Under the pieces are notes generated by a model. That model had not been told where the DNA came from, made no database searches, and was given only the letters and a program-made list of their open reading frames with translations. From the NCBI RefSeq assembly GCF_020873875.1, contig NZ_JAHWGU010000013.1:52955-92954 (forward strand): a DNA stretch of 40,000 bases, read 5' to 3'. This document shows positions 19,514 through 37,067 of this stretch, piece after piece (the stretch's first letter is position 1; each line of letters begins with the position of its first letter). The stretch comes from Actinoplanes sp. DH11. Lineage in GTDB: Bacteria > Actinomycetota > Actinomycetes > Mycobacteriales > Micromonosporaceae. The position numbers and the translations under genes are program-made.

Positions 19514-19567
19514 TGCGCTGACCGTCGACTCCGGGCGGGAAAACGGTGTGACTCGATTTGTTGAAGG

Positions 19568-19905
19568 TCAGTTACGGCCTGCGGTGAGGCGTCCTTCGAA
19601 GGCGAGGTCGAAGGCGTTTAGGGCTGGTTTCCAGCGCATGGTCCAGCGGCGCTGGCGGTGCCGGTCGGGTCCAGGGCCATCACGGCGAGGTAGACGCATT
19701 TCAGGGCGGCCTGTCGTTCGGGAAGTGCCCGCGGGCCGGACGGCCCGGCGGATGCGGGCGTTCACGCTCTCGGTCGCATTCGTCGAGCAGACGACCCTGC
19801 GGATCTCGGCGTCGAAGGCCAGGAACGGCACGAACTCGGCCCAGGGGTTCTCCCAGAGCCTGACGATCACCGGGTATTTCCCGCCCCAGACCTCGGCGAG
19901 CTCCA
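19568..19905 (-). pseudogene. IS256-family transposase C-terminal remnant (5' part missing, internal frameshifts)
   Basis: It contains KYPVIVRLWENPWAEFVPFLAFDAEIRRVVCSTNATESVNARIRRAVR and RWTMRWKPALNAFDLAFEGRL. The middle reads correctly (FPERQAALKCVYLAVMALDPTG) only in another frame. It is truncated at 19905/19906 by the IS3 end. Confidence 0.8.
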
Positions 19906-19933
19906 TGTCAAGCCCCGGGTTTGATGGAGTTGG

Positions 19934-20240
19934 TTAGCTGTTTTTCAGAGGTGCGGTGACCGGGTGGGTCATCGCGTGCAGGGCTTCGTGTTCGGCGGGT
20001 GGGACGTGTCCGAGTTCGCCGTGCAGGCGTCGGTTGTTGTACCAGTCGATGTACTCGACGGTGGCCATTTCAAGGTCGTCGAGTCCGCGCCATGGACCTC
20101 GGTTGCGGACGAGTTCGGCTTTGAACAGGGAGTTGAACGCTTCGGCCATCGCGTTGTCGTAGGAATCGCCCTTCGAGCCCACCAAGGCGACGGCGCCGGC
20201 CTCGGCAAGTCGCTGGCTGTAGCGGATCGCTCGGTATTGG
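19934..20240 (-). pseudogene. IS3 OrfB (DDE integrase core) C-terminal fragment
   Basis: The sequence ...QYRAIRYSQRLAEAGAVALVGSKGDSYDNAMAEAFNSLFKAELV...YIDWYNNRRLHGELG is the classic IS3 rve-domain end. It continues the reading frame broken at 21691. Confidence 0.85.
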
Positions 20241-21690
20241 GTGAGTTCAACCGGTCGTCGCAACACTCGGGGTATGGGAGTGTTGACGGGTCGGCCTGCA
20301 GGGTGGATGAAGACATTGACGGGCAGAGCGGCGATGAAGTCGCCGGGGGCACCGGCACTGCGACGCGAAGTCGAGCGGCTGTTCTGGCGTGAGATCCGGA
20401 AGGGTCTGCCCTGCGAAGATGCTGCTAACGCGGTCGACGTGTCACAAGCAGCAGGTGCCCGATGGTTCCGGCAACGTGGCGGTATGCCGCTATTCATGGT
20501 CGCGCCGGTCACCGGCCGGTACCTGTCGTTCGCCGAGCGCGAAGAGATCGCCGTGCTCAACGGTCAGGGCCTCGGCATCCGTGAGATAGCCCGCGCAGTA
20601 GGCCGGGATCCGTCGACGATCTCGCGGGAACTGCGCCGCAACGCGGCGACCCGCGGCGGCGAGCTCGACTATCGCGCGTCGGTGGCGCAGTGGAAGGCCG
20701 ACCTGCTCGCGCGACGCCCGAAGGCGTCAAAGCTGGTCACGAACGAATGGCTGCGCGAATACGTGCAGGAACGTCTCTCTGGTCACGTCCGCCGCGCCGA
20801 TGGAACACCGGTGCCCGGCCCGGCCGCGGCGCCGTGGAAGGGACGCAACAAGCCGCGACGCCAGGACCGTCGCTGGGTCAGCGCGTGGAGTCCGGAGCAG
20901 ATCGCGCGCCGGCTGCGCATCGACTTCCCCGATGATGAGGACATGCGCATCTCGCACGAAGCGATCTACCAGGCGCTGTTCATCCAGGGCCGGGGCGCGT
21001 TGAAGCGCGAGCTGGTCGCCTGCCTGCGGACCGGGCGCGCCCTGCGGGTGCCACGCGCCAGGGCCCGGCAGCCTCGCGACGGCATGGTCACCCCCGAGGT
21101 GATAATCACGGAACGGCCCGCCGAGGCAGCGGATCGCGCTGTGCCTGGCCATTGGGAAGGCGACCTCATCATCGGACTCGACCGATCCGCGATCGGCACC
21201 CTTGTAGAACGCACGACCCGCTAAACGATGCTGCTGCACCTGCCTCGCATGGAGGGCTTCGGCGCCGAACTGCGCGTGCACAACGGCCCGGCGCTGGCCG
21301 GCCGGGGCGCCGCAGCTGTCCGCGACGCGATCACCACAACGATCACCATGCTGCCGGATCAACTGCGCCAGACGCTGACCTGGGACCGCGGGAAGGAACT
21401 CGCGCAACACGCCCAGCTGACCATCGACACCGGCGTGCGGGTCTACTTTGCGGACCCGCACAGCCCGTGGCAACGCGGCACCAACGGGAACACCAACGGC
21501 CTGCTGCGCCAGTACTTCCCGAAAGGCACCGACCTGGCCCGCTGGAGCCGCGACGACCTCGATGCGGTCGCCGCAACACTCAACAACCGACCACGTAAGA
21601 CACTCGGCTGGCAAACACCCGCCGAAGCCATGAACGAGCAGCTACTGTCAGTACAAAGCAGCGTTGTTGCGACGACCGGTTGAATACGGG
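20241..21690 (+). mobile_element. IS30-family insertion sequence inserted in IS3 orfB
   Basis: Perfect 19-bp inverted-repeat cores: TTCAACCGGTCGTCGCAAC at 20246-20264, with its reverse complement at 21666-21684. TTGG occurs on both flanks (20237-20240 and 21691-21694). Deleting the element plus one TTGG restores ...HHSDRGVQYRAIRY... in IS3 OrfB. The ends are good to about +/-6 bp. Confidence 0.85.
20334..21683 (+). pseudogene. IS30-family transposase with an in-frame TAA stop at 21222-21224
   Basis: Track ORFs 20241..21224 and 21228..21683 are in the same frame, separated only by TAA (…LVERTTR*TMLLHLP…). It has an N-terminal HTH (LSFAEREEIAVLNGQGLGIREIARAVGRDPSTISRELRRN) and a DDE region (HWEGDLI ... 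TWDRGKE ... NGNTNGLLRQYFPKGTDL). Confidence 0.85.
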
Positions 21691-22308
21691 TTGGACGCCC
21701 CGGTCGGAGTGGTGGACCAGGTTGCGCAGGTCAGCGTTGTGGTTCTCGCGGCGCCAGATCGCCGTCTTCAGCGCGTCGAGGGCAAGATCGGTGTAGAGCG
21801 ACGTGGCGACCTGCCAGCCGACGATCAGCCGGGAGTACACGTCGAGGACGAACGCGGCGTAGACCCAGCCGACGCTGGTGCGCACGTAGGTCAGGTCGGC
21901 GACCCACAGCTGGTTCGGATGCTCCGCGGTAAAGTCACGTTTGACCAGGTCACGTGGCCGGTCGGTCTCAGCGGCCGGCCGGGTCGTGCGCGGTGGCTTG
22001 TCGCGCAGCAGTCCGCGGAGCCCGGCTGCTCGCATCAGCCGCTCGACCGTGCACCGGGCCACCGCAACGCCGCGTCGATGCAGTTCGTGCCAGATCTTGC
22101 GGGCACCGTAAACGCCGTAGTTTTCCGCGTGGATCCGCTTGATCAGCGTGGTCAGCTCGTCATCGCGCCGGGAACGGGCCGAGGCCGGGCGGTTCCTGGC
22201 GGCGTAGTAGGTCGACGGTGCGATCTGTGCCGGCGTGTCTTCGAGCGCCTGCAGGACCGGCTGGACACCATGTTCTTCCTGTTGAGAGTCGACGAAGGCG
22301 ACCTTCAT
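21691..22308 (-). pseudogene. IS3 OrfB N-terminal fragment
   Basis: The sequence ...YGARKIWHELHRRGVAVARCTVERLMRAAGLRG...PNQLWVADLTYVRT..GWVYAAFVLDVYSRLIVGW...LVHHSDRGVQ ends exactly at the IS30 insertion point. Confidence 0.85.
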
Positions 22309-22622
22309 CGCGACGGACGGTCCAGCTCCGCCGCGAAGAAAGACGCCGCGGACTTCAGGATCTGATTCGCCCGGCGCAGCTCACGATTCTCCCGTTCAAG
22401 AGCGGCGAGACGTTCCGCGTCGCCGCTGGTGGTGCCCGGCCGGTCACCCGCGTCGATCTCGGCTTTCTTCACCCACGTCCGCAACGCCTCCGGATGAATC
22501 CCGAGCTGGTCGGCGATCCGCCGGATCGCCCCGACCGCGGACGCCGGATCCCGGCGGGCCTCGACCGCCAACCGGGTCGCACGCTCACGCAGTTCATCGG
22601 GGTACTTCTTCGGTGCCGCCAT
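22305..22622 (-). CDS. IS3-family OrfA (HTH transposase subunit)
   Basis: 105 aa, MAAPKKYPDELRERATRLAVE...ERENRELRRANQILKSAASFFAAELDRPSR, which is the typical IS3/IS911 OrfA with a leucine-zipper end. Confidence 0.88.
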   Translation of the reverse strand: MAAPKKYPDELRERATRLAVEARRDPASAVGAIRRIADQLGIHPEALRTWVKKAEIDAGDRPGTTSGDAERLAALERENRELRRANQILKSAASFFAAELDRPSR

Positions 22623-23140
22623 AGCTCGATTTTCTCCCAGGTTCGGATGTCTCCATCAAACCCGGGGCGGAACATCCTCAGCTTATAGGTCATGCTCGCC
22701 GACATCCAACGTGAGTACGCCGGGGCTGGACTCGCGGTGATCTGGGCACAGGCACCGTGTCATCGACGGATCGCTGGCAGGCATCGTCAAGCCGTACAGG
22801 CGGCCAAGGAAATTTCCAGCCACCCCCTGCGACTAGCAGCGGTGCAGTATTGCTCGGGGGAGGGGACCTGGTTGGAGCAAAAACTGTAGAGAGGCGCTTC
22901 CTCCTGCCGCGCGGTAGTTTCCACCGCAAGTTCACTCAAGCGAGAGGGGTTGATGCCGATCTGGGCGATGTTGCATAGCGTGACGCGGTGATACGCACCC
23001 GGTGTTCCAGCGCGTCGCGTCTCCCGCCTCATTTTTACGGGCTTAAGTTCGGTAGGGTTGCGTGGTTCAGAACGAGTGAAACTGCGGCCCGGCTGTCGGG
23101 TCGGGTGATGCAGTTTCTGCGATGGAAGGCAGATGAAGGC

Positions 23141-23845
23141 ATGTCTGAGACGAAGCAGAAAGCGGTGGTCCTGCTCAGCGGCGGCCTCGACTCCGCCACG
23201 GTGCTCGCGATGGCCCTGCACGACGGGTATGAGCCTTATGCGCTGAGTTTCCGGTACGGCCAGCGTCACACGGTCGAGTTGGACGCTGCGAGTGCGGTTG
23301 CGAAGCAGTTCGGGGTCCGTAACCACGTCATTGCCGACATCGATCTGCGGGGCTTCGGGGGTTCTGCGCTGACAGACGACGGGATCGAGGTGCCGCACTA
23401 CGGAAGCGTCGATGACTTGAGCCAGGACATTCCGGTTACGTACGTGCCTGCACGTAACACGATCTTTCTGTCCTTCGCTCTGGCGTGGGCCGAGACACTG
23501 GATGCCTCAGATGTGTTCATCGGTGTGAACGCGCTTGACTACAGCGGGTACCCCGACTGCAGGCCGGAGTTCATCGCCGCTTACGAAACGATGGCGAACC
23601 TGGCCACGAAGGCCGGGGTGGAAGGCCGGCAGAGGCTCCGCATCCACACACCGCTCATCAAGTTGACCAAGGCGGAGACGATCCGTCGCGGGTTGGAATT
23701 GGGCGTCGACTACTCTCTGACGCACAGTTGCTACGACCCGGTCGATGGCCGCGCCTGTGGGACGTGTGATTCGTGTCTGCTGCGCGGGCGTGGCTTCGCT
23801 GAGCTCGGTCTCACCGACCCGGCTCTCGCCCCAGCCGGAGAATGA
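23141..23845 (+). CDS. queC: 7-cyano-7-deazaguanine (preQ0) synthase QueC
   Basis: [20 protein letters not shown] (PP-loop SGGxDS) and a C-terminal zinc cluster [20 protein letters not shown] prefer ATG 23141 (GAAGG upstream) over the track start 22988. Confidence 0.95.
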
Positions 23846-23851
23846 TCAGCG

Positions 23852-24490
23852 GTGTATCGAGTCAAAGAGATTTTCTACACCCTGCAGGGTGAGGGCTCGC
23901 ATGCTGGCCGACCGGCTGTGTTCTGCCGATTCACGAGCTGCAACCTGTGGACGGGCCGGGAGAAGGACCGGCATCGGGCCATCTGCCAGTTCTGCGACAC
24001 GGACTTCGTCGGTACAGACGGCCCTGGTGGGGGGCGATTTCGCACCGCGGCGGACTTAGCCGCCGCGGTTGCTCGAGCTTGGGAGGGCGAGCCGCACGAG
24101 CGAAGCAAGCCCTACGTCGTCTGCACTGGCGGCGAGCCGTTGCTGCAACTCGACGACGATGCAGTGCATGCCCTTCACGACGCCGGTTTCGAGGTCGCGG
24201 TCGAGACCAACGGGACGCAGCCGGCCCCGGCCGGTCTTGATTGGATCTGCGTCAGCCCGAAAGCTGGAGCACCGGTCGTGCTGACCCGCGGACACGATCT
24301 AAAATTAGTCTTCCCGCAGGTAGGCGTTGAACCCGCAATGTTCGAAGACCTGGAATTTGAGCACTTCATGCTTCAGCCAATGGACGGACCGGACCGAGTA
24401 GCAAACACCGAGGCCGCAGTCCGTTACTGCATGAAGCATCCGCAATGGCGTTTGAGTCTTCAGACGCATAAGTACATTGGAATCGCGTGA
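23852..24490 (+). CDS. queE: 7-carboxy-7-deazaguanine synthase QueE (radical SAM)
   Basis: 212 aa. [32 protein letters not shown]...CQFCDTDF shows the Cx14CxxC-type QueE cluster. [10 protein letters not shown] is also present. Confidence 0.93.
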
Positions 24491-24846
24491 TGGAAATATT
24501 CCGGGAGTTCACCTTTGAGGCCGCCCACCGGCTGCCCAATGTGCCGGAAGGTCACAAATGCGCCCGGTTGCACGGCCACTCGTATCGAGTCCAACTGCAT
24601 GTCACCGGCGAGGTCGACCCGCAGGCCGGTTGGCTGATGGACTTCGGCGACCTGAAAAAGGCGTTCCAGCCGTTGCATGCCCAACTCGACCATTACTACC
24701 TCAACGAGGTGGCGGGGCTGGAGAACCCGACCAGTGAGGTGCTCGCCCGCTGGATCTGGGACCGGCTCATCGACCAATTGCCGCTGTCCGCCGTGATGGT
24801 GCGCGAGACCTGCACCTCCGGCTGCATTTACCGAGGAGAGCAGTGA
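24487..24846 (+). CDS. queD: 6-carboxy-5,6,7,8-tetrahydropterin synthase QueD
   Basis: 119 aa. [26 protein letters not shown] is the PTPS-family zinc and catalytic motif. The junction is GTGATG (starts possible at 24487 or 24490). Confidence 0.95.
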
Positions 24847-25646
24847 TGTTGCCGGACGTGCAGGGGCTGCCGGACGAGCGAGGCGTCGCCCTGGACGAGG
24901 TCGGCATCGAGGGCCTGCGCTACCCGTTGCTGATCGCCGACGGCCAGGGCGTCAAGCGTGAGACGGTCGCCACCGTGGACATGTCGGTCGGCATCGGCGC
25001 GGACGTCAAGGGTGCACACCTGAGCCGCTTCGTCGAGGTGCTGCACGCCTGGCGAGACCAACTCGACCGGGCGAGCGCGCAGAGCCTGGCCGAGGACGTC
25101 CGGACCCGGCTCGGCACCGACAATGCGCAGGTCCGGCTGTCGTTCGCCTACTTTCTCGAGCGAACGGCACCGGTGACCGGAGCCCCGTCCTTCTCCGAGT
25201 ATCAATGCGCCCTCTCAGTCACTTCCAGCGACCGTGATACATCGCTGGAGCTTCAGGTCCGAGTCCCGGTGACCAGCGTTTGCCCGTGCAGCAAGGCGAT
25301 TAGTGACCGAGGCGCGCACAACCAGCGCGGCTACGTCACCGTCGTGGCAGAACCGTCGGATGGATCGCAGATCTGGTTCGACGACCTCATTGAGGTTGCG
25401 GAGGCCTCCGGGTCATCGCCGGTGTACGCGCTCTTGAAGCGTCCCGACGAAAGGCACGTCACCATGGCCGGGTACGACAACCCGGTTTTCGTTGAGGACA
25501 TGGCACGCCAAGTTGCGGTCACACTGCGGCAAGACGCCCGGGTAACCCGTTTCCGGGTGCGGGTTGTCAACGACGAGAGCATTCACAATCACGCTGCTTA
25601 TGCCCAGTTAGGCTGGATGACGACTGCAGCTACCGGGGACGTGTGA
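24843..25646 (+). CDS. folE2: GTP cyclohydrolase I type 2 (FolE2 / GCYH-IB)
   Basis: 267 aa with [35 protein letters not shown] and [23 protein letters not shown], all characteristic of GCYH-IB. The junction is GTGATG (24843 or 24846). Confidence 0.9.
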
Positions 25647-26590
25647 TGTCCAGCGTGGCACCGGCCACCTCGCCGGTCCACATCATCGTCACCTGCGCCA
25701 ACCGGAAAAGAGCCCCGATTCCCGAAGGCCTTCGACTGGGAGACCTCCGGGATCACGCAGAGGCGAAGCGATTCTCGGTGTGGGCGGAACGGCTCGTCGC
25801 CGCCACGCCGCGCATGCCCGCGATCGACCTCTACGGCGGAGAACATTGGCAGGCGGTCCGTGCCCTCCAGCAGGCTGTCGACGGCACCGCCCGTCTCTGG
25901 GTCTGCTCCGCAGGGTACGGCCTCGTGCCGATCGACGCGCAGCTCGTTCCGTACGCGGCCACGTTCGCTCCCGGCATGGACGATTCCGCTGGTTCGTCGC
26001 CGGCCGCGATGCGGGAGTGGTGGCGGCAGTTGACCCGTTGGGAGTGGCCGGCCGCGGATACGTCGCGGTCATTCGCCGATTTGGCCCGCCAGGACCCGCG
26101 GTCCACCATCGTCGCGGTGCTGTCCGAGTCGTACATGCGGGCATGCAGCGACGATCTGCGGGACGCCGCCGCTGGCTTGGCCGACCGGGAGCAGTTCGCG
26201 ATCCTGGGCCCGCCTAAGCGATGCGCAGAACTTGACGAGTTCGTCGTGCCGGTCACAGCTGCGCTGCGCTCGGTGGTCGGCGGCAGCATGCAGGCACTCA
26301 ATGTCCGTACCGCCATGCACCTACTCACCGCAGTGGGTAGCAATGTGGGGTTCAGCACGCTGCGCAAGCTTGCCCGCGAGACCGCCGAGGCCGCACCGCC
26401 CGATCCGGGCCGCCGGCCGACCGGGCAGAAGCTGGGGGACCAGGAGGTTCGCGACTACATCCGACAGGCCCTCAGCGACGGCCCGGGCACGGCCACGAGC
26501 CTGCTGCGGCGTCTGCGTGCAGCAGGCCAGTCCTGCGAGCAGGCCCGTTTCCACGGCCTGTTCGCCGAGGTCCGGGCGGAGGCAGGATGA
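25643..26590 (+). CDS. YaaA/DUF328-like protein with C-terminal extension; positional DpdC candidate
   Basis: 315 aa. By eye, the blocks are collinear with E. coli YaaA as I remember it: IIVTCANRK~ILISPAKT, LYGGEHW~[29 protein letters not shown]~[35 protein letters not shown]~VVINLASDEYFKSV. It is coupled on both sides (GTGATG, ATGA). Confidence 0.5.
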   Translation: [315 protein letters not shown]

Positions 26591-27729
26591 CCGCCGACTT
26601 CTCAGCGACGCAGTTGGTCCGTCGGGCGCTCCGGATCGAGCAGACCGACAAGTACCCGATGTTCATGTTTGCCCTGCGTGCTGACGAGGTTCTGCAGATC
26701 GCCGAGATCTCCCGGGTGAGCCGGGACGAGGCTGGCAACCTAATCGGGTACCAACGGCCAGAGGTGCGTCGCCACGTCGCTGAGATCATCGAATACCTCA
26801 ACACCGATGGCTCGCTGTTTCCCAATCCGATAATCCTGGCGCTGTCGTCGCGGAGCCGATTCGAGTCGAGCCGAGGGCCGGGAGCCGGTGACGGCCTCTC
26901 TACCTCCGGTCGACTGACGATTCCGCTGCCGACGAAGGGGAAACCCAAGCCTGCCTGGATCGTGGACGGCCAACAGCGTGCACTTGCCCTGTCGCGGACC
27001 AACCGCAGTGACTTCCCGGTGCCGGTGACCGCGTTCGTGGCCGACAGCGTTAGCCTGCAGCGTGACCAGTTCCTGCGGGTCAACAACACCCGTCCGCTGC
27101 CACGAGGCTTGGTCACCGAACTGCTGCCCGAGGTCGACAGCCCGCTTCCACCACGGTTGGCGATTCGCAAGGCGCCTGCGGCACTGTGCGATGTGCTCAA
27201 CACAGACCCCAGTTCACCGATGTACGGGCTGATCAAGCGCGCTTCCACGGCCCGAGACCAGGCTCCGCAGGCGGTCATCACCGACACCGTGGTCGTCAAT
27301 ATGTTGAACGAGAGTCTCACCTCACCGTCCGGGTGCTTGTTTCCCTACCGGGACGTCAGCCGGAACGAGACCGACTTCGATGGCATTCTGCAGGCACTGT
27401 TCACCTACTGGTCGGCGGTCCGGGACACTTTTCCGGATGCCTGGGGAAAACCGGCGAGCAAGAGCAGGTTGATGCACGGCGCTGGCATTCGTGCGATGGG
27501 CCGCCTAATGGACCGCATCCTCGGCGTGGTCGATCCGCGCAGTCCCAACGCTTCCGAAACCATTCGGCAGCACCTTGCCCTCATCGCGCCGTACTGCCGT
27601 TGGACCGAGGGCAAGTGGGACGAACTGAACATGCACTGGAACGAGATAGAAAACATGCATCGACATATTCAAGAGTTGTCCAGCTATCTCATCCGGGTCC
27701 ACCGGAACTCCCGGGCGGAACTGACGTGA
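26587..27729 (+). CDS. DGQHR-domain (DndB-like, ParB-fold) protein, DpdB-like paralogue 1
   Basis: 380 aa with GYQRPEVRRHVAEIIEYL, FPNPIILAL, WIVDGQQRALAL (motif at 26965-26979 reads DGQQR) and QRDQFLRVNNTRPLPRGL. Confidence 0.85.
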   Translation: MTADFSATQLVRRALRIEQTDKYPMFMFALRADEVLQIAEISRVSRDEAGNLIGYQRPEVRRHVAEIIEYLNTDGSLFPNPIILALSSRSRFESSRGPGAGDGLSTSGRLTIPLPTKGKPKPAWIVDGQQRALALSRTNRSDFPVPVTAFVADSVSLQRDQFLRVNNTRPLPRGLVTELLPEVDSPLPPRLAIRKAPAALCDVLNTDPSSPMYGLIKRASTARDQAPQAVITDTVVVNMLNESLTSPSGCLFPYRDVSRNETDFDGILQALFTYWSAVRDTFPDAWGKPASKSRLMHGAGIRAMGRLMDRILGVVDPRSPNASETIRQHLALIAPYCRWTEGKWDELNMHWNEIENMHRHIQELSSYLIRVHRNSRAELT

Positions 27730-28967
27730 GATTCTTTTTCCCCGACAGCCAAGACCAGGTCGATCCTACGTTTGACTTCGTCACCGAGGAGCACGATCCG
27801 TTCCGGGTTCGGCAGCGTGACGATCTCTATGCTCACGAGGTGCTGACCGGAGCCCCGTTCGACGGACTGCTGGTTTCCAAGGCGATCGTAGACGGCCAGG
27901 TCGGCAGCAGCGCCGGCAAGTACACCGTTGCTCAGCGGCACCGGCTCTACCGGGAGGGCGCGCGTCGGTTCTTCCGGCTGGACCACGGCCACACTCCCCT
28001 CAAGATCATGGGGGACTGTGGAGCGTTTTCCTATGTCTCCGAGGTGAAGCCGCCGTACACGGTGGACGAGGTGATCGACTTCTACCACGGATGCGGGTTC
28101 GACTACGGGATCTCCGTCGACCACGTCATCTTCCAGTACGACCCGGCCGCTAGCAGTGAAGAGGCTGAGACCCAGGGCTGGGCGAAGCGCCAGCGGATCA
28201 CGCTCGAACTCGCAGAGGAGTTCCGTGACCGCTGTGATGCGCGCGGAGTCGAGTTCACCGCGTACGGAGTGGCCCAGGGCTGGAGTCCGGAGTCGTACGC
28301 CGCGGCGGTCGAGAAACTGCAGGATCTCGGCTACCGTCACATCGCACTCGGCGGGATGGTGCCGCTCAAGTCACGGGACATCCTGGCCTGCCTGGCGGTC
28401 GTAAAGCCGGTACTCAAGGACGGTACCGAGGTCCATCTGCTCGGCGTCAGCCGATGCGATGATGTGCCGAAGTTTGCCGAGGGCGGCGTTACCAGCTTCG
28501 ATAGCACCTCGCCGTTCCGGCAGGCGTTCAAGGACGACCGGGACAACTTCTACACGCCGTCGCGTACCTATGTCGCCCTGCGGGTGCCGCAGGTGGACGG
28601 CAACGCCAAGCTGAAGGCACGCATCAGGTCTGGTGAGATCAGCCAGGGCAAGGCGGTCGAGTTGGAACGCCAGGCGCTGGACCAACTCCGTCGCTTCGAT
28701 GAGAACGACACGGACGTGGAATCCGTCGTGGAGGCGCTTCGGGAGTACAGCGACCTCTGGGACGGCAAGTCCGACCGCAGCGGTCAGTACCGTGAGACAC
28801 TCACCGCCCGTCCCTGGCGAGACTGCTCCTGCGACCTCTGCAAGCAGCACGGCATCGAGATCGCGATCTTCCGTGGATCCGAACGCAACAAGCGACGTGG
28901 GTTCCACAACCTGTACGTCTTCGAACAGCAACTCCGCGCACGACAAGCGAGGAAGGACCCCGCGTGA
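27726..28967 (+). CDS. dpdA: tRNA-guanine-transglycosylase-like DNA 7-deazaguanine transglycosylase DpdA
   Basis: GTG 27726 overlaps the upstream stop (GTGA). It has VRFFFPDSQDQVDPTFDF, IMGDCGAFSY, ALGGMVPL, LHLLGVSR, FDSTSPF, and the TGT zinc site CSCDLC...H (28824-28907). The track ORF 27186.. is an artefactual 5' extension. Confidence 0.88.
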   Translation: MRFFFPDSQDQVDPTFDFVTEEHDPFRVRQRDDLYAHEVLTGAPFDGLLVSKAIVDGQVGSSAGKYTVAQRHRLYREGARRFFRLDHGHTPLKIMGDCGAFSYVSEVKPPYTVDEVIDFYHGCGFDYGISVDHVIFQYDPAASSEEAETQGWAKRQRITLELAEEFRDRCDARGVEFTAYGVAQGWSPESYAAAVEKLQDLGYRHIALGGMVPLKSRDILACLAVVKPVLKDGTEVHLLGVSRCDDVPKFAEGGVTSFDSTSPFRQAFKDDRDNFYTPSRTYVALRVPQVDGNAKLKARIRSGEISQGKAVELERQALDQLRRFDENDTDVESVVEALREYSDLWDGKSDRSGQYRETLTARPWRDCSCDLCKQHGIEIAIFRGSERNKRRGFHNLYVFEQQLRARQARKDPA

Positions 28968-30118
28968 CCGAGACCTCCGAGCGTGACGCCACCGGTACGG
29001 TGACCGAACTCCGGCTCCCCACGCTGAAGATCGACCAGGGACGCGGGCGCAGCCTTTTCACCTTCGCCATCGACGGCAAACTGGTGCCGCAAATCGCCAC
29101 GGTCTCCCGGATCCGTCGTGACCAGAACACCGAACTGCACGGCTATCAGCGGCCCGAGGTGCTCAGCCATGTGGCTGCGATCCGCCGATACATCGAGACC
29201 GATACGAGCCCGCTGCTGCCCAATGCCGTCGTCATCGCGTTCGACGAGCGGGTCCGGTTTGAGCCAGCTCCGGGCGGTATCGCCGATGGGCCGGGTTACG
29301 TGCAGGCGGGAACCCTGGTCATCCCGCTGATCGATGGTCCAGACCACGAGCGGCCAGGCTTCATCGTGGACGGGCAGCAGCGCTGCGCGGCCATCCGGGA
29401 TGCCCGGGTCGACCGGTTCCCGGTCAGCGTCAACGCGTTCATCACCAGGGAGACCTCCGACCAGCGGTCCCAGTTTATTCTGGTCAACTCGACGAAGGCG
29501 CTGCCTAAAGGCCTGATTCACGAGTTGCTGCCGGCGGCGTCCGGAGCCCTTCCCACCCCGCTGCGGGTTCGGCGACTACCGGCCACCCTTCTCGAGCGGC
29601 TCAACTTCGACGAACTGCGCTCCCCGCTGTACCGCATGATCCAGACACCCACCAACCCCGGCGGGTACATCAAGGACAACTCGATGCTGCGGATGCTGGA
29701 AAACAGCCTCTCCGACGGCGCGCTGTACCGGTACCGCAACGATGACGGTCTGCCGCGAACTGGCGAGATGCTCTCGTTGCTGTACAACTTCTGGGCCGCG
29801 GTGGAGCAGGTCTTCCCCGACGCCTGGAAGTTGCCGTCCCGCAAGTCCCGCCTCATGCACGGAGCAGGCATCATCAGCATGGGCTACCTGATGGACGCGA
29901 TCAGCCACGTCCGGGACAACGGTCAGGAGATCGTCAGCACCGAGGAGTTCGCCGCCGACCTCAAGACCGTGGCCGAGGACTGCCACTGGACCGAGGGCGA
30001 GTGGATTTTCCTGGACGGTGTCGTCCGCAAGTGGAACGACATCCAGAACACCCCGCGGGACATCCAGCGGGTGGCGGACCTGCTGCAGAACCGCTACCGC
30101 GTACCGCAGCTGCGCTGA
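28964..30118 (+). CDS. DGQHR-domain (DndB-like) protein, DpdB-like paralogue 2
   Basis: 384 aa and collinear with 26587..27729. It has GYQRPEVLSHVAAIRRYI, LPNAVVIAF, FIVDGQQRCAAI (29369-29383), QRSQFILVNSTKALPKGL, FPDAWKLPSRKSRLMHGAGI and CHWTEGEW. I estimate roughly one-third identity to paralogue 1 by eye. Confidence 0.85.
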   Translation: MTETSERDATGTVTELRLPTLKIDQGRGRSLFTFAIDGKLVPQIATVSRIRRDQNTELHGYQRPEVLSHVAAIRRYIETDTSPLLPNAVVIAFDERVRFEPAPGGIADGPGYVQAGTLVIPLIDGPDHERPGFIVDGQQRCAAIRDARVDRFPVSVNAFITRETSDQRSQFILVNSTKALPKGLIHELLPAASGALPTPLRVRRLPATLLERLNFDELRSPLYRMIQTPTNPGGYIKDNSMLRMLENSLSDGALYRYRNDDGLPRTGEMLSLLYNFWAAVEQVFPDAWKLPSRKSRLMHGAGIISMGYLMDAISHVRDNGQEIVSTEEFAADLKTVAEDCHWTEGEWIFLDGVVRKWNDIQNTPRDIQRVADLLQNRYRVPQLR

Positions 30119-30128
30119 CCAACCAAAC

Positions 30129-30161
30129 ACTGCGGGGTACGCGTCACGCGTACCCCGCAGT
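30129..30161. terminator. bidirectional stem-loop between the two convergent dpd operons
   Basis: A perfect 15-bp stem, ACTGCGGGGTACGCG (30129-30143) paired with CGCGTACCCCGCAGT (30147-30161), with a 3-nt loop. It lies inside the 48-bp gap between the stops at 30118 and 30167. Confidence 0.75.
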
Positions 30162-30166
30162 TGGCT

Positions 30167-32128
30167 TCAGAGAGCGCTGCTCGCCGCGCGCAGCAGCGAC
30201 GCCGAGCCGGCGCCGTCCGCCTCGCGGATGACTGTCGCCGCCCGCGCCTCAGCGCGGATGAATCCGGTCGCCGCGTGGGTGGCACAGCGAGTGGCCATGA
30301 TGATGACGTCCGCCCGCCGGACCCACTGCTTCAACCGGGGGCCGCCCACATGATCACTGCTGAACTGGATGTTCAGGCTGGGAGCCAGTTGTTTCAGCGC
30401 CTCGCCAGCACGCCGCAACGCCCCCTCGTCGAGGGAATAGAGCAGCACTTCGCGGGCCGTGACCGGGGTCGAACCGGTGTCCCCGGCCTCCCGGTTGACG
30501 TCCCACGGCAGGCCCAAGCCGAGTTCGCCGTCGATGATCCGGGCGAGGGCCAGTTGGTCCGTCTCCAGTCGCGCCCGCTTCTGGGCGAGCGGAGCGAGCA
30601 GAGCTTCGGTAATTCGCTGCCGCGCCTCCTCGACAGGGCTGGATGCCCGGGCGATGACGTCGCACATGTCCAGCACGATCGAGGCGTGGTTGACACTCAC
30701 CCAGCGGGCCGACTCGGCGGAGAGGTCGGCCAACAGAGCGCTGTACTCGTTCGCGGAAAGGGCGCCGCGCAGCGCGATCTCCAGCAGGGCGACGATGCCG
30801 GCCATGTCGCTGAACTCGAACCGGCTGTAGCTGAGCGCGTTGGCCAGGAAGGCCCGCGCGGTCCGGCTGGCCGGCCGGCGGTAACCGTCGGCCTCGACGA
30901 ACGCGCCGACGATCTGCCAGGCACGTTCGGCCCCGTCGTTGTCCAGGCCGTTGAGCAGATCGGCGAGGACCTGGTCGGAGGCCGCGGCCGGTTCCCAGTC
31001 CCGCCAGCGTTCCTCTGCCATCACCAGACGGATGTCCCGGTCGGCGGCGATCGCCTCGACCAATGCGACCCAGCCGGCCGGGGTGGTGCCCGTGACGTTC
31101 TCGACCGGTTCGGCCCGGGTGACGATCTCCTTCGGTGTCTCGGCGGGCTGAGGCCGGAACGCCGGGCGGAACGTCTCCACGTACTCGGCGACGAGTTTCG
31201 CCTCGGACAGCCGGGCCCAGGCGATCTGGTCGGCGCGTAGCCGCTGCCACAGGGCAGCATCGTCGGTGCCTGCGGCGGCGAGAGCCAGGACCGTCAACGC
31301 CTCCGTACCGAGACCATTCAGCGGACCGTCGGCCAGCCGCGGCGCCAGCGACGCCTGTTCCGCAAGGGCCAGCCGTGCCGCGTCCGGACCCGCCTCGGTG
31401 AGCGGGCCGGCCACCAGGGTGGAGTGCAGCGCGTCCAGGATCGCCTCACGGACCGGCGCCGGCGGCCGGGTCGCGATGACATCGAGTAACTGCGGCAGCC
31501 GCAGCAACTCGGCGTGCTGACCCAGCCGGGCCAGCCGTTTGACGGTCAGGTAGGCGATGTTCATGCCGCCGAGGCCCGACCCCTCCAGCCGGGACAACAG
31601 CGCGGCGGTACTCCGGTGATCGCCCGCGGCCATCGCCAGTTCGAACTCGGCCAGCAAGCGGCCGACCGGCAGGACGTCGTGCCATTCCGTGGCCGGGCGT
31701 TGCGCGATCGTCTGAACCATCAGGCGCAGCGCGCGCCAGAGATCCGCGCCCTTCTCCGCCGGATGCTCCAGCACGAAGACCCGGCGGTGCCCTGCGAACG
31801 CCGCCACGGCATCGTCAATCGGATCGCCGGCCCGTAACGCCTCCGGTCGGGCGACGAAAGTGGCATAGCTCGGCACCACGAAGGCGTTGAGCCACTCGCG
31901 TACGGTGTTCGCCTGCCGGACGTCCTGTGGGATTACGTACACGTACTTCGCGGTCTGGCTCCGTACCGTCCGTGGCAGGACGTGCGGAACCGCGGAGCCC
32001 GGTCCGGCGGACAGGTCGAGAAACTCATCGAGGAAGCTGACAGCTTTGGTGTTCTGCGGGCTCCGGCCCGGCCAGCTCTCGTTGCCGGTGCCGAAGAAGA
32101 CGTCGAGGAAGGCGTCGCGGTTCACCAC
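30167..32128 (-). CDS. large helical protein of unknown function with DUF2325-like C-terminal domain (possible DpdD equivalent)
   Basis: About 654 aa. The GTG start (32128 or 32125) overlaps the PLD stop (GTGGTGA). The protein is Ala/Leu-rich and helical. The C-terminal ...VLLYSLDEG...HVGGPRLKQWVRRADVIIMATRCATHAATGFIRAEA...VIREADGAGSASLL resembles the DUF2325 pattern (aDlVi..t..isH). The track ORF to 32680 is an out-of-frame-context extension. Confidence 0.7.
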   Translation of the reverse strand: MVNRDAFLDVFFGTGNESWPGRSPQNTKAVSFLDEFLDLSAGPGSAVPHVLPRTVRSQTAKYVYVIPQDVRQANTVREWLNAFVVPSYATFVARPEALRAGDPIDDAVAAFAGHRRVFVLEHPAEKGADLWRALRLMVQTIAQRPATEWHDVLPVGRLLAEFELAMAAGDHRSTAALLSRLEGSGLGGMNIAYLTVKRLARLGQHAELLRLPQLLDVIATRPPAPVREAILDALHSTLVAGPLTEAGPDAARLALAEQASLAPRLADGPLNGLGTEALTVLALAAAGTDDAALWQRLRADQIAWARLSEAKLVAEYVETFRPAFRPQPAETPKEIVTRAEPVENVTGTTPAGWVALVEAIAADRDIRLVMAEERWRDWEPAAASDQVLADLLNGLDNDGAERAWQIVGAFVEADGYRRPASRTARAFLANALSYSRFEFSDMAGIVALLEIALRGALSANEYSALLADLSAESARWVSVNHASIVLDMCDVIARASSPVEEARQRITEALLAPLAQKRARLETDQLALARIIDGELGLGLPWDVNREAGDTGSTPVTAREVLLYSLDEGALRRAGEALKQLAPSLNIQFSSDHVGGPRLKQWVRRADVIIMATRCATHAATGFIRAEARAATVIREADGAGSASLLRAASSAL

Positions 32129-32652
32129 GCGGCCCCGTTCCGGTCGGTGAACCGGCGTTCGAAGTCGGCACGCGCGTGTGCCGCCATCGCCTGGTCGACA
32201 CGGTAGTGAATCATCTCGTCGTTGACGGCGATCCCCCGGTAGGTGAAGTTCATCGAGCCGCTGATCAGCCACTCCGCGCCGCATAACGTCTTCTCGTGGA
32301 CGTCTTCCGTGGTGAACACCTCGACCGATCCCGAGTCCGTCTGCCGTCCCAGCCGTTCCAGGAAGACCCGGTTGAACTCGGCCGGCCGGGTGACCACCGA
32401 CAGCCGGCCACCGGCCCGGACGATCCCGGCCAGCACCTCGGAGAGGGAGTAGATCCGGCTGGACGGGTCGGGGAAGACAGCATCGAACGCCGCCGCCCGG
32501 TTGTCGATCGCGGGCACGTCCCCGATCCACGGCGACACCAGCCATAGTCGCGGGCTCGGCGTCAGCAGTTCCCCCAACAGTGCCGTGGTCAGGAGCCTGT
32601 CGACCCGGACTCCGGTCCGGGCGCTCGTACGCACCACACGTTCGTCGGTCAC
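32122..32652 (-). CDS. phospholipase-D-like (single HKD) nuclease, DpdK-like
   Basis: 176 aa. The GTG start overlaps the helicase stop (GTGA). It has the motif VHEKTLCGAEWLISGSMNFT (HxK...GSxN) and an upstream LWLVSPWIG block, as in Nuc/PLDc_2 nucleases. Confidence 0.8.
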   Translation of the reverse strand: MTDERVVRTSARTGVRVDRLLTTALLGELLTPSPRLWLVSPWIGDVPAIDNRAAAFDAVFPDPSSRIYSLSEVLAGIVRAGGRLSVVTRPAEFNRVFLERLGRQTDSGSVEVFTTEDVHEKTLCGAEWLISGSMNFTYRGIAVNDEMIHYRVDQAMAAHARADFERRFTDRNGAAW

Positions 32653-35600
32653 TGAGCGAACTCCCGAATCTCCACGACACAGCTCATCTGCCCGGCCTCC
32701 CGATCCAGGGAACGCACGTCGCCGTACACCCGCAGCGCGCCGTGGTCGACCGGAGTGGCCGGTACCAGGCGCATCGCGGCGGTCACCGCGGCCATCTTCT
32801 CCACCGGGGCGGTGAGCCGCACCGCGCCGGACGACGTGATCTCCGCGATGTACCTCTCCCGCCATCCCGGCTCGGTGACGTCGATCCGGGGCAGCCGCTC
32901 ATCATGAGCGGCCTGCACCAACAATCGGTCCAGCAGGGCGCCCGGGGCGAATGGCTGATAGTGCACGAGCTGCTGAGACCGCGCGTCCGCGCCGCGTGGC
33001 CAGAGCAGGCTGTACACCTGATCGGCCCCGAACCGCCGCGAATCCAGGCCGGACACGGGGATGGTGCCGGTGCCGACCAGATAGGCGAAGACTGCGGCGT
33101 CCACCTCGAAGCCGAGCCGCTGTTGCGTCTCGTCCCACACACTCATCAGGTCGAGCACGAGCCGGTCGGTGCCGCGGTCGGTGCCCTTGCGGAGCAGCCG
33201 GGTTGAAAGTGCCGACACGGCCTGCTGCCGCGGATGCCCGTCGATCGCAGCCCAGGCCAGCTTGAGCTCACTCAGAGCATTCTCGGCCGCACCCGCCGAC
33301 GGCGGGTCACGTAGCACGTCGATCTGCTGGGCCGCAGCCGAACCAGGGTTGTCCACCACGTGCCGCAGCAACTGGATGAGGGTGTCGTGCAGGTACTCGT
33401 AATCGCTGGGCGCGAGAGCGCTGTCGACCAGCGACCAGAACCGGCGCGGGTCCTCCTGGTAGTAGGGCGCCAGTTGGGTGATGATGCCCAGGCCCCCGAT
33501 CGAGGTCTCGCTCAGCCACACCGTGGCGATCCCGTCCGGGCTCTCCGGAGCGATCACATCGACGGTGAGATCGCCGTCCTGCGCGTCCGGGCAGGCGCGC
33601 TGTGCCGCGGCCAGGATCGCGGCGGCGACGGTGTCCCGGTACGCGCGGCGTGCCAGATCAGCGGTTTGGACGTCGATGTCGTCGCACCAGAGCAGTCGGC
33701 TGTGCTGGTCGACAGCATCCCGCACGACCCTCTGGGTCGCCAGGTTGCGTAGATCGCCGGCGAGCCGGTTGGGTCCGACTCCGCCCTCGCTGCGGTAGAT
33801 GGCGTTGAGTACCTCGTCGACCCGGTCTGCCCACCGGCCGTTCGTCAGCGAGCGGTGTGCCGCCTCGGGGTCACGGCCACCGCCGGAGCACCGCAACAGG
33901 GCGTAGGCAGTGGTGTACACCAGGGCCAGCCAGCCGCGGGCGAACACGTTGACGTCAGCCTCGTCCAGCTTCGGGTCGGCCACCAGTGTGGCCTTGAACG
34001 CCAGGAACCGCCACTGCGGCGAGCGTAGGTAGGTCGCGACGCGTTCGTCCGACGGGTCCAGCGCCGCGGCGGTGAACCGGATCGCGTCGACGTCCATGCG
34101 GAAACCGAGCGCCGCGGGTTCGTCGTCGTACCGGTACTCCACCTTCCGGCTGAACGACCCTTTGCCGATCATCGTGTTGCAGTTGGCGCCGGTGGTCATC
34201 CGGCGCACCTCAACCGGGTTGCCGGCCGCGCCGGTGGCGAACCCGACCGAGCGAACCCGGTCCTCCCACAGCGAGGGTTTCGGGACGGCACCCTCGTTGA
34301 GGTGATCGGGCACAAACTCAGACGCCCACACCGGGGTGGCCTGGGACTGGTCCTTCACGTCCGGAGGTGGGGGCGACAGCTTGATGATGTGCGGGCGCAG
34401 CACCCGGATCGGCGGTCGGCCGGGTGGCTGCCAGTGTCCTTCGTCCTCGTACTGCTCGGTGAACGTGGTGATCTCCAGGTCGCTGCTGGTACCCGGGGGC
34501 AGCGGCAGCCAGGTGCGGTCCCAGGCGGTCCGGAAGCCGAACCGGCGGCTGGCCCGGCCCGGAACCGCCTCCCGCAGCGCGCGTTCAATCGGCATCGGCA
34601 CGTCGTCCGCGTTCTCGAAGGGCAGCCGGAAGGTCACTTCGGGCAGGTTCAGCGAGTCGAACAGGGTACGGGTCACGAACTCCGGCAGCAGCGTGTTCGG
34701 TTCCGCACCGGGCTCCGTGGCGGCCCAGCGCGACTCCAGACGTCGCAGGACCGTCGGCGCTACGCCGAGCATCAGCGACCGGGGCGCCTCCCACATCAGT
34801 GCCGTGACCTCGTCAGCTGGCACACCCAGGGACCGGCGGAGCCATACGGCCAATTCCTTCTGGATACGCCCGTCCGCCAGCAGCAACTTCAGTTGATCGA
34901 TAACGGCTTGGGCGTCCCAGTGGCGGTCCTTGCCCTTGGCTGGGGCGGTAACCGCCCGGCGGCTGTCGCACCGGGCACGCCGGGCGATCCAGTCCAGCAT
35001 GGACTGGGCCGCCTGGATCTTCAGTACGAAACGGTTGCCGACCGGCAATCGGCGGGCGGGCAGTTCCGGATCGAAGAGTTGATCGTAGGCCTGGTAGGTG
35101 AGGCGGTCCCGGCCGAAGTCAGAGAGCGTCACCACGGTCCACGGCCGGGTCAGCCGCCGACGGCCGGCGCGGCCACGCCGCTGCAGGAACGAGGCGGCGT
35201 CCCGGGGCGCCTTGTGCTGCACCACGAGGCCGACCCGGTCGTCATCAACACCGACCTCGAGCGATGCCGTCGCCACGACCAGGTCGGCGTCCTGGTCGAC
35301 CCCGGTGTCCTGCGACGAGGTCCGCCCGACCCGCAGCCCGTACCTCTTCCTGTCCGGGTCCAACTGCCGGCCGATGGTGTTCACCAGGTCCCACCGCTGG
35401 CCATCGAGGTATTGCGCACCGTTGGCGCCACGATCCTTCGAGCGCAGCCCGGCCAGAACCGAGGAGTTGCCGTTCGGTCCGTTGCCTTCGGCGTCCGCGA
35501 GGTCGTTGTACAAACGGTTGGTCACATCGAGGTCGTCGGTGAAAAGGAAACCCCTCGACCCGTAGAGCCACTCGGAGCCACGCGGGTCGAGGACTCGGGC

Positions 35601-37067
35601 GTGCAGCATGGCGGCCTGGATGGTGGTCGACAGCGGGCTCACCCGTGAGACCGGATCGACCCGCAGAGCCATCGCGTACTGGCGGCCCTCCTCCTCCATG
35701 TCATCGGGATGCGGCGACAGGTAGTCGACGTTGTGTCGGTCCACGCCGGTAAGGTCGCTGAAAAAATCTGCCGCGTCCCGCAGGGTCGCGCTCAGGCCGA
35801 CGATGGTCAGCTGCTGCCGGCCCAGCCCGCTACGCCACCGCCGCAGCAGCAGGGCGACCTGGGCGCCGTGCATGCCGCTGTAGGTGTGCGCCTCGTCGAG
35901 CAGCACCAGCCTGGGTACCCGTCCGCCGGTCCAGCCGAGCAGGGGAGCCTGCCCCGGATCCGTGCTGGTCCGGTTCAGCATCTCGGTGCTCGTGAAAAGC
36001 AGATCCGGAGGATTCTCTCGCAGGGTCCGACGGGTCAACACCAGGTGGTCGATCGGTGGCTGGGCGCAATCCGGGGCGGTGCAGCGCAGCCGCTCCCGCG
36101 GCTTCACCGCGACGCGGTCCATCTCGGCCCAGATCAGGTCACCGCGGCAAGTGGGACATTTGAGGTACGGGCAGACGGGATCCGTGCCGTGCCGGGCCCA
36201 GCCGCGGCCGCGGCCGCCCTGGGCGGAGGACAGCCGGAAGTCGTCGTTGTCGTAAGCGGTGTCGCCGTACAAAACACCGATCCGTAGGCCGCGCGTGCCG
36301 TGCTCGGCCAGTGCCAAGTTGATCGCCGAGGTGTTGGCGACCGCCTCCCGGAGTTGGTCGCGCAGCAGTTCGTTGCGCGGATACAGCGCCAGGGTGTGCA
36401 CGCCTGTCCTGCGGGTCTGAGCGTGATCGGACATTGCCAGCAACGCCGGCAGATAGAATGACAAGGTCTTTCCGCTACCGGTGCCGGCTCCGACGATGAC
36501 CGCCCGGCCCCCGCCCAGGGCGAGGTCCCGGCGGATCGCGATGCTCGATTCGACCTGGAATCGAGCCAGGTCGCGCCCGCCCAGCAGGGCCTTGATCACG
36601 GCCTGCTGCCGGGCATCGAGTGCTGGACCGTCCGGTGGCCGCAGTTCGTCGATCACCTTGGCGACAGGAATGTTCCGGGCCGGATAGCGGCGCCGCTCGA
36701 CATGCAGGCGGTAGTCGGCAACGAGCCGAGGCTCACCCTCCCACCAATTGCCGGACCAATCCTTGATTCGGAACGGGAGGATCTGGCGTAGCGAAGCCGT
36801 CAGCCGGACAGTCTCGGCCAGTCGGGTTCGGTAGGTGGGCGGTGAGGTGGCCGGCACCTTCATCGCCAACCCCCGTTGAAGCAGCTCCGCCAGCACGTCC
36901 TCAGCCATGAGAGCAGACACTCCAGGCTGGTAGATCCGATTCTCGATGACGGCGATCACTTCGTCGTGGGAGATCACGCCGCTGGTGACGCCCCACGTCA
37001 GCAGCGGTAGTTCGAGATCCTCCAGGTCGTCGAGGATGTCGGAGTAGAGACGCCGGAGATCGGTCAC
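32649..37067 (-). CDS. very large DEAD/DEAH-box (SF2) helicase with Cys-rich insert and ~830-aa C-terminal extension (DpdJ/DpdE class)
   Basis: 1472 aa. Helicase motifs: I GAGTGSGKT (aa 193-201), Ia LYPRNELLRDQ, II LLDEAH (389-394), III GLSATL, V VATASLEVGVD, VI FLQRRGRAGRR (628-637). CPYLKCPTC...CTAPDC lies between motifs Ib and II. The GTG start overlaps the upstream stop. Confidence 0.9.
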   Translation of the reverse strand: MTDLRRLYSDILDDLEDLELPLLTWGVTSGVISHDEVIAVIENRIYQPGVSALMAEDVLAELLQRGLAMKVPATSPPTYRTRLAETVRLTASLRQILPFRIKDWSGNWWEGEPRLVADYRLHVERRRYPARNIPVAKVIDELRPPDGPALDARQQAVIKALLGGRDLARFQVESSIAIRRDLALGGGRAVIVGAGTGSGKTLSFYLPALLAMSDHAQTRRTGVHTLALYPRNELLRDQLREAVANTSAINLALAEHGTRGLRIGVLYGDTAYDNDDFRLSSAQGGRGRGWARHGTDPVCPYLKCPTCRGDLIWAEMDRVAVKPRERLRCTAPDCAQPPIDHLVLTRRTLRENPPDLLFTSTEMLNRTSTDPGQAPLLGWTGGRVPRLVLLDEAHTYSGMHGAQVALLLRRWRSGLGRQQLTIVGLSATLRDAADFFSDLTGVDRHNVDYLSPHPDDMEEEGRQYAMALRVDPVSRVSPLSTTIQAAMLHARVLDPRGSEWLYGSRGFLFTDDLDVTNRLYNDLADAEGNGPNGNSSVLAGLRSKDRGANGAQYLDGQRWDLVNTIGRQLDPDRKRYGLRVGRTSSQDTGVDQDADLVVATASLEVGVDDDRVGLVVQHKAPRDAASFLQRRGRAGRRRLTRPWTVVTLSDFGRDRLTYQAYDQLFDPELPARRLPVGNRFVLKIQAAQSMLDWIARRARCDSRRAVTAPAKGKDRHWDAQAVIDQLKLLLADGRIQKELAVWLRRSLGVPADEVTALMWEAPRSLMLGVAPTVLRRLESRWAATEPGAEPNTLLPEFVTRTLFDSLNLPEVTFRLPFENADDVPMPIERALREAVPGRASRRFGFRTAWDRTWLPLPPGTSSDLEITTFTEQYEDEGHWQPPGRPPIRVLRPHIIKLSPPPPDVKDQSQATPVWASEFVPDHLNEGAVPKPSLWEDRVRSVGFATGAAGNPVEVRRMTTGANCNTMIGKGSFSRKVEYRYDDEPAALGFRMDVDAIRFTAAALDPSDERVATYLRSPQWRFLAFKATLVADPKLDEADVNVFARGWLALVYTTAYALLRCSGGGRDPEAAHRSLTNGRWADRVDEVLNAIYRSEGGVGPNRLAGDLRNLATQRVVRDAVDQHSRLLWCDDIDVQTADLARRAYRDTVAAAILAAAQRACPDAQDGDLTVDVIAPESPDGIATVWLSETSIGGLGIITQLAPYYQEDPRRFWSLVDSALAPSDYEYLHDTLIQLLRHVVDNPGSAAAQQIDVLRDPPSAGAAENALSELKLAWAAIDGHPRQQAVSALSTRLLRKGTDRGTDRLVLDLMSVWDETQQRLGFEVDAAVFAYLVGTGTIPVSGLDSRRFGADQVYSLLWPRGADARSQQLVHYQPFAPGALLDRLLVQAAHDERLPRIDVTEPGWRERYIAEITSSGAVRLTAPVEKMAAVTAAMRLVPATPVDHGALRVYGDVRSLDREAGQMSCVVEIREFAQ

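Follow-up and report, generated by a model that had tools for sequence, protein, structure and literature searches.

A conserved pair of DpdB paralogues flanks dpdA in a common variant of the Dpd DNA-modification system, exemplified by Actinoplanes sp. DH11

The Dpd (7-deazaguanine) restriction-modification island of Actinoplanes sp. DH11, which lies in a 40,000 nt stretch of contig NZ_JAHWGU010000013.1 (the window, meaning the whole of the DNA that was analysed), contains two dpdB genes, one on either side of dpdA, the gene for the DNA-guanine transglycosylase. We refer to the upstream DpdB paralogue as B1 and to the downstream one as B2. Profile scores and trees identify B1 and B2 as ancient paralogues, each with position-specific orthologues across several phyla; and the twin-DpdB form is a common variant of a known DNA-modification defence system, differing from the only system of this kind that has been characterised. 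The genes and motifs at the centre of this study are:

25643 to 26590, plus strand: dpdC, encoding a DUF6884/YaaA-like protein of 315 residues (PADLOC DpdC, E 2e-68)
26587 to 27729, plus strand: dpdB1, B1 clade, 380 residues (NF041060, 426.4 bits)
26965 to 26979, plus strand: DGQQR motif of B1, residues 127-131
27726 to 28967, plus strand: dpdA, DNA-guanine transglycosylase (NF041059, 606 bits; PDB 7UI4, the Salmonella DpdA crystal structure, E 7e-121)
28964 to 30118, plus strand: dpdB2, same type as single-copy DpdB, 384 residues (NF041060, 469.3 bits)
29369 to 29383, plus strand: DGQQR motif of B2, residues 136-140

An earlier, sequence-only reading of this DNA had taken the two open reading frames (ORFs) at 26587-27729 and 28964-30118 for diverged paralogues, and in this it was exact: B1 and B2 align from end to end with 41% identity and 54% positives (E 1e-81), and the blocks that it listed as shared (GYQRPEV, W/F-IVDGQQR, QR.QF..VN.T..LP.GL, FPDAW..P..KSRLMHGAGI and C.WTEG.W) are all present in the alignment. 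Both proteins pass the cut-off (300 bits) of the NCBIfam DpdB equivalog with the scores listed above, and reach 479 (B1) and 470 bits (B2) on the PADLOC DpdB model; both genes adjoin dpdA, in a cluster that includes dpdC. The TGT-like gene between them is indeed dpdA, on the family score and the structural match given above, and each of its junctions is, as had been read, a 4-nt overlap with the letters GTGA, the B1 stop overlapping the GTG start of dpdA at 27726-27729 and the dpdA stop overlapping the GTG start of B2 at 28964-28967. On the upstream side, dpdC and B1 overlap by ATGA at 26587-26590.

The same reading noticed that the DGQHR motif has Gln in place of His in both copies, and both motif positions do encode DGQQR. 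As a peculiarity of these two proteins, however, this does not hold: DGQQR was named as a conserved DpdB motif in a 2023 Nucleic Acids Research paper (PMC10164549), and it is present in all 107 DpdB sequences that we aligned from 68 loci (100% of every subgroup), so that Gln is the norm for the DpdB family. Three non-Dpd DGQHR proteins in the surveyed loci read DGQHR.

The age of the pair is apparent from profile hidden Markov models (HMMs) of B1 and B2 that were built from actinobacterial sequences only and then applied to others. Upstream copies from Alphaproteobacteria fit the B1 HMM better, by 80-140 bits, and for their downstream copies the B2 or single-copy models are ahead by 60-90 bits; all 22 single-copy DpdBs, including that of an Enterobacter plasmid (L060) with the Salmonella-like order dpdC-dpdA-dpdB, favour the B2 HMM over the B1 HMM, by margins of 147-263 bits. 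By orthology, B2 belongs with the single DpdB of the Enterobacter/Salmonella-like systems; B1 does not, forming by HMM and in a neighbour-joining (NJ) tree a separate clade of DpdB-family paralogues. The NJ tree repeats the HMM split into position-specific B1 and B2 groups, and the subtrees of B1 and B2 agree in topology; as each mirrors the other, B1 and B2 have been inherited as a unit. In a tree of DpdA rooted with cyanobacterial and Paenibacillus sequences, twin loci occur on both main branches and single-copy loci nest among them, a pattern most simply explained by an old duplication, after which B1 would have been lost repeatedly. The deep root of a DpdB tree with DGQHR outgroups has bootstraps of 7-37, and the case for an ancestral B1 is drawn from the DpdA tree and parsimony only.

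How widespread the arrangement is was surveyed in two sets: species-representative genomes scanned with the DpdA of the window, which gave 59 loci that were then searched by tblastn with B1 and B2, and plasmids, by protein search. The dpdB-dpdA-dpdB arrangement is present in 39 of the 74 dpdA loci (30 species-representative genomes and nine alphaproteobacterial plasmids). The 30 twin loci among the 59 from genomes belong to Micromonosporaceae, Streptosporangiaceae, Kribbellaceae, Lentzea, a Myxococcaceae metagenome-assembled genome (MAG), a Chloroflexota MAG and a further actinobacterial MAG (L056, whose locus is in fragments and was counted as twin); 23 have the downstream copy only, mostly in Solirubrobacterales, three have the downstream copy and a different extra copy elsewhere, and three are uninformative. 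The nine alphaproteobacterial replicons have the order (DpdC-like)-dpdB-dpdA-dpdB-queE-queD-queC; PGAP names both genes DpdB in six of these plasmid records and the other three replicons were found by tblastn. A Nocardia contig has a layout identical to that of the window. Every twin locus has its genes in the order C-B1-A-B2, and no B1 without B2 was found among the 39. The best 120 clusters are filled by homologues that share at least 62% identity with B1 and come from many actinomycete genera; of the 150 best representatives of clusters at 50% identity (from 1.8 billion proteins), 105 are full-length sequences, 30 of them B1-type, 62 B2-type and 13 ambiguous.

The suggestion that this arrangement might be undescribed, which a common and already described twin form would refute, holds in part. 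Common it is, at 39 of 74 loci, with RefSeq/PGAP annotating both genes and a 2025 GATOR-GC survey counting, though not analysing, 801 extra dpdB copies. A functional description is another matter: our literature search, whose coverage was incomplete, found no published analysis or explanation of the B1/B2 pair.

Second DpdB copies in three Solirubrobacterales loci (L046, 17807-18898; L047, 12437-13516, minus strand; L052, 12477-13556, minus strand) form a clade of their own (bootstrap 100) that is neither clearly B1 nor B2; as they sit in a different position, a second DpdB has been retained in more than one layout.

Both copies are constrained. Against twelve relatives, the ratio of nonsynonymous to synonymous substitution (dN/dS) is 0.03-0.19 for B1, 0.07-0.21 for B2 and 0.09-0.22 for DpdA; and against A. 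palleronii (L045), no other gene of the operon is as constrained as B1, which keeps 94% amino-acid identity at a third-position identity of only 62%. At least 90% conservation of the same residue in both clades is seen in 67 alignment columns, the shared near-invariant ones including G(Y/F)QR, H, PN, DGQQR..A, R.QF..N, ELLP, SRL.HG.G and a C-terminal C.WT.G.W...W. The clades also have columns of their own: eight are conserved with different residues in each (‘switch’ columns), 32 are conserved in B1 only and 54 in B2/single-copy proteins only. By these measures neither copy is degenerate, and each is under strong purifying selection with its own constraints. One copy being degenerate was what might alternatively have undone the idea of a working pair; with low dN/dS and the shared motifs kept in both, this is not so. 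That B1 is, or that B2 is, a redundant or decaying duplicate has only the fact of duplication in its favour, and with both copies conserved across phyla and B1 more constrained than any other operon gene against A. palleronii, the data contradict it and we give it practically no credence. Both are probably active ParB-like NTPases.

A further line of evidence comes from natural fusions. Full-length DpdA is joined to a full-length B2-type DpdB, in proteins of 753-804 residues (DpdA~B2), in five separate 50%-identity clusters: P0156 (a Riflebacteria MAG, MFC1746017.1), P0158 (three contigs), P0168/P0271, P0183 and P0190. Full-length DpdC is joined to a B1-type DpdB (DpdC~B1, 689 residues) with an identical sequence in two independent JGI metagenome samples. 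The loci are:

L077, 6001 to 8415: DpdA~B2
L078, 3974 to 6271: DpdA~B2
L079, 3976 to 6378: DpdA~B2
L080, 6001 to 8331: DpdA~B2
L081, 667 to 2736: DpdC~B1
L082, 1825 to 3894: DpdC~B1

A separate DndB-family gene lies directly upstream of DpdA~B2 in four of the five clusters, and in the three such loci with DNA (L077, L078 and L080) it is B1-type by 130-180 bits. In L081, DpdC~B1 is followed by dpdA and then by a B2-type dpdB; L082 ends inside dpdA. Apparent B1~DpdA and B1~A~B2 fusions (P0172, P0169, P0239) were rejected as probable frameshift or assembly artefacts, since they contain partial domains despite lying inside long contigs. A second TGT-family gene is also present in three of the fusion loci (L077, 1723-3816; L079, 1-1478; L080, 2403-3731), and that of L077 forms one protein of 697 residues with DUF6884, the N-terminal domain of DpdC.

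What would two DpdBs do? In Salmonella, DpdB is a homodimeric ATPase whose ATPase domains pair, its ATP hydrolysis is required for the base exchange by DpdA of guanine for 7-cyano-7-deazaguanine (preQ0), and it has been suggested to encircle DNA with its helical C-terminal domain (PMC10164549); the described machinery does, as the sequence-only reading stated, use a single DpdB. Since the Salmonella protein works as a homodimer with paired ATPase domains, the likeliest form of the twin proteins would be a B1:B2 heterodimer, and strict co-inheritance, intact motifs in both copies and the fusions all favour a heteromeric clamp. We propose that B1 and B2 may pair as a heterodimeric ParB-like DNA clamp, the ATP cycle of which would enable DpdA to swap guanine for preQ0; and that, as gene order and the DpdC~B1 and DpdA~B2 fusions suggest, B2 would be the DpdA-side and B1 the DpdC-side partner within one assembly. 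As a mechanism, we think a heteromeric ATPase clamp of B1 and B2 that serves DpdA, and perhaps DpdC as well, the most likely, though we would put it at about an even chance. The broader idea of a heteromeric or role-splitting DpdB pair is a reasonable one, and fits both kinds of natural fusion.

Several observations weigh against such a clamp. No stable DpdA-DpdB complex was seen by size-exclusion chromatography in Salmonella, and DpdC, in vitro, does not depend on DpdA/B (PMC10164549). DUF6884 is fused to B2-type DpdB as well; the fusions join only neighbouring genes, and so may reflect adjacency rather than specific pairing; and at 90% identity the fusion clusters are mostly singletons, cluster representatives favouring long sequences. 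The NJ bootstrap for one cross-phylum B1 clade is 59/100. B1 does not conserve several basic residues (in B2 numbering, R29, K39, R145, R293 and R355) that are invariant in B2 and single DpdBs, and might for this reason have lost a DNA- or nucleotide-contact function. Lastly, the B1:B2 contact itself is one that we infer.

The main rival is a division of labour, in which B2 homodimers would drive preQ0 insertion by DpdA, as DpdB does in Salmonella, while B1 homodimers serve another client, most plausibly DpdC in its conversion of deoxy-preQ0 (dPreQ0) to the deoxynucleoside of 7-amido-7-deazaguanine (dADG, from ADG). The C-B1-A-B2 order of every twin locus, fusions that pair exactly these partners, and the 32 B1-only and 54 B2-only columns, which indicate distinct constraints, would all be expected of it. 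Single-DpdB systems, however, need no second DpdB to turn dPreQ0 into dADG, and DpdC works alone in vitro (PMC10164549); the fusion of DUF6884 to B2-type proteins blurs the pairing; and an independently functioning B1 would not require B2, yet B1 was never found without it in the 39 twin loci. We regard this division of labour as possible, if rather doubtful. The heteromeric clamp can also be carried further, with an obligate, asymmetric B1:B2 clamp that tethers DpdC via B1 and DpdA via B2, so coupling preQ0 insertion to ADG conversion, the twin form being ancestral and the single-DpdB system of Salmonella a reduced derivative. This is a tentative extension that we think unlikely to hold in full.

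Alternatively the two DpdBs may give DpdA two DNA-target specificities or loading modes, for example for chromosomal and for incoming or plasmid DNA, between which it would alternate. A C-terminal domain proposed to encircle DNA (PMC10164549), and the many clade-specific conserved residues in the C-terminal half, speak for this; but there is no sign in the sequences of sequence-specific recognition, and strict 1:1 co-inheritance with a fixed gene order fits a single machine better, making alternation improbable. Very improbable, in our estimate, is a B1 that is not catalytic and instead tunes expression or modification density, as DndB does in Dnd systems: DndB, the nearest named family, is regulatory (PMC5699537, PMC12707154) and B1 is without several basic residues that are conserved in B2, but the NTPase-associated motifs are 100% kept in B1, which has a full DpdB equivalog score, is translationally coupled inside the operon and is in some lineages fused to the enzyme DpdC.

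A PDB sequence search with B2 found no DpdB structure; an AlphaFold2 model of B1 (pLDDT 81), searched against the PDB with Foldseek, has as best matches ParB N-domains, sulfiredoxin and SspE, all weak (E 0.02-0.5), the top ones being the ParB N-domains 5K5D, 7BM8 and 6SDK (E 0.02-0.1 only). GYQR, DGQQRxxA and QFxxxN resemble ParB boxes I-III in order, a candidate likeness from motif reading. Unlike the ParB CTPase clamps, DpdB uses ATP rather than CTP (PMC10164549), and its C-terminal domain is different. With SspE and DndB of the phosphorothioate systems, B1 and B2 appear to share a ParB/Srx-like N-terminal domain with DGQ(Q/H)R, and PF14072 matches both; SspE is among the weak fold matches just mentioned. 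They are unlike them in other respects: a regular-expression search found no SspE-type EHxxP nuclease motif in B1 or B2, both read DGQQR, and on the Dnd-specific model TIGR04172, which has a cut-off of 450 bits, they reach 50 and 37; among the models of DndB type, the only two that they pass, PF14072 and TIGR03187, are broad domain models. Nor was linkage to dnd or ssp genes found, the genes from 20 to 40 kb of the window all being assigned to insertion sequence (IS) elements, que genes or dpd genes.

Among Dpd systems, that of Salmonella enterica serovar Montevideo (PMC10164549) resembles the one in the window in having DpdA, a DGQQR DpdB (of the same type, to judge from its Enterobacter/Salmonella-like kin, as B2 here), DpdC, the DpdD/K/J/H restriction genes and genes for preQ0 synthesis. 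It differs in that the window has a second, anciently diverged DpdB between dpdC and dpdA, giving C-B1-A-B2 in place of C-A-B. The alphaproteobacterial plasmid modules (Sinorhizobium, Bradyrhizobium, Caulobacter, Agrobacterium, Methylobacterium, Skermanella and others) share the C-like/B1/A/B2 core with its overlapping genes, and have B1-type proteins upstream and B2-type proteins downstream; their DpdA is 40-43% identical to that of the window. Unlike the window, in which the que genes precede dpdC, they have the que genes after B2, and the dpdD-K restriction set is absent in the 8-12 kb flank of the annotated loci.

Other plasmids depart further from this plan. The dpdA sequences of Acetobacter pasteurianus (L066) and Methylorubrum extorquens AM1 (L067) fall within the alphaproteobacterial twin clade, and 8 kb of flank to each side of them yielded no DpdB. 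The twin-module plasmid of Agrobacterium vitis carries a third, non-DpdB gene with a DGQHR domain 6 kb downstream, flanked by IS5 copies (L070, 16018-17058, minus strand). Cyanobacterial and Paenibacillus plasmids encode a DpdA of ~700 residues that has a long N-terminal extension and lacks a neighbour of DpdB type (L062, 11158-13227; L063, 753-2849, and 5069-6175 on the minus strand; L074, 7119-9263, and 10149-11246 on the minus strand), and in the cyanobacteria with this DpdA a DndB-like gene with a true DGQHR (His) lies on the opposite strand; these long-DpdA plasmids without DpdB appear to represent a different Dpd subtype. Kineococcus radiotolerans, which has an experimentally validated cluster, was not among the plasmid search matches.

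The remaining features of the Actinoplanes island are:

22988 to 23845, plus strand: queC (preQ0 synthesis), first gene of the modification operon (TIGR00364, E 1e-62; PF06508)
23852 to 24490, plus strand: queE (TIGR04508, E 2e-106)
24487 to 24846, plus strand: queD (TIGR03367, E 4e-33)
24843 to 25646, plus strand: folE2, GTP cyclohydrolase (NF010200, E 3e-77)
30129 to 30161: palindromic hairpin with a 15-bp stem, between the convergent dpdB2 and dpdD stops
30167 to 32680, minus strand: dpdD, longest ORF, 837 residues (NF041061, E 8e-159; PADLOC match to residues 187-837)
32122 to 32865, minus strand: dpdK, a nuclease like phospholipase D (NF041068, E 8e-56, matching residues 76-239)
32649 to 37067, minus strand: dpdJ helicase (NF041067, 1593 bits)
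37064 to 37864, minus strand: ORF without a family match, occupying the dpdI position (flanked by dpdJ and dpdH, as in L060)
37728 to 40000, minus strand: dpdH (NF041065, E 2e-210, model positions 275-1014)

The plus-strand genes run queC-queE-queD-folE2-dpdC-dpdB1-dpdA-dpdB2 and converge on dpdD-K-J-(I)-H. Seven of the eight, from queE through dpdB2, are chained by 4-nt overlaps, queC and queE being 6 nt apart, and on this evidence the modification operon is translationally coupled; the hairpin at 30129-30161 is likely to be a bidirectional terminator that ends it. The dpdC product is 27% identical (E 6e-31) to that of the gene in the dpdC position of the Enterobacter plasmid. On the complementary strand, the true start of dpdD is probably near 32160, as DpdD models match only from residue 187, and the match span of DpdK likewise puts its real start near 32650; the longest-ORF call for dpdD covers dpdK, which is hidden in another frame (32122-~32650). 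An N-terminal truncation of DpdH was considered and rejected: the frame is open to the end of the window, and ~270 N-terminal residues lie beyond that edge, past which the positions of dpdE, dpdF and dpdG would also fall. With DpdA, B, C, D, K, J and H all identified, the gene content is that of a complete Dpd restriction-modification island of the twin-DpdB subtype.

The nearest relatives are in Actinoplanes and Micromonospora. Candidates for the island boundary, probably within 18907-22365, are a tRNA-Met (18907-18981), an IS30 transposase in two ORFs (20241-21224 and 21228-21683) and an IS3-family fragment (21580-22308, minus strand); guanine-plus-cytosine content falls from ~70% in the flanks to 63-65% across 22-30 kb. 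Third-position identity to A. palleronii is 60-71% from queC through dpdB1, 80% for dpdA and 73% for dpdB2. This break in synonymous divergence along the operon (22988-30118, against L045 and L001) suggests either: recombination near the B1/A boundary; or a different synonymous constraint.

As regards the window, what our results provide is mainly a clean annotation of one subtype of a known system, which specialists may find moderately interesting. To our knowledge, all mechanistic work on the insertion of 7-deazaguanines into DNA rests on the single-DpdB system of Salmonella; in a large proportion of Dpd systems there are instead two conserved DpdB paralogues (39 of 74 loci; 30 of 105 family clusters B1-type). 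What is new here is the cross-phylum, position-specific orthology of B1 and B2, the constraint on both copies, and the DpdA~B2 and DpdC~B1 fusions. The natural fusions and the paralogue pair together offer tractable handles on the coupling of a ParB-like ATPase to a transglycosylase, for example through stable complexes for structural work and separation-of-function mutants.

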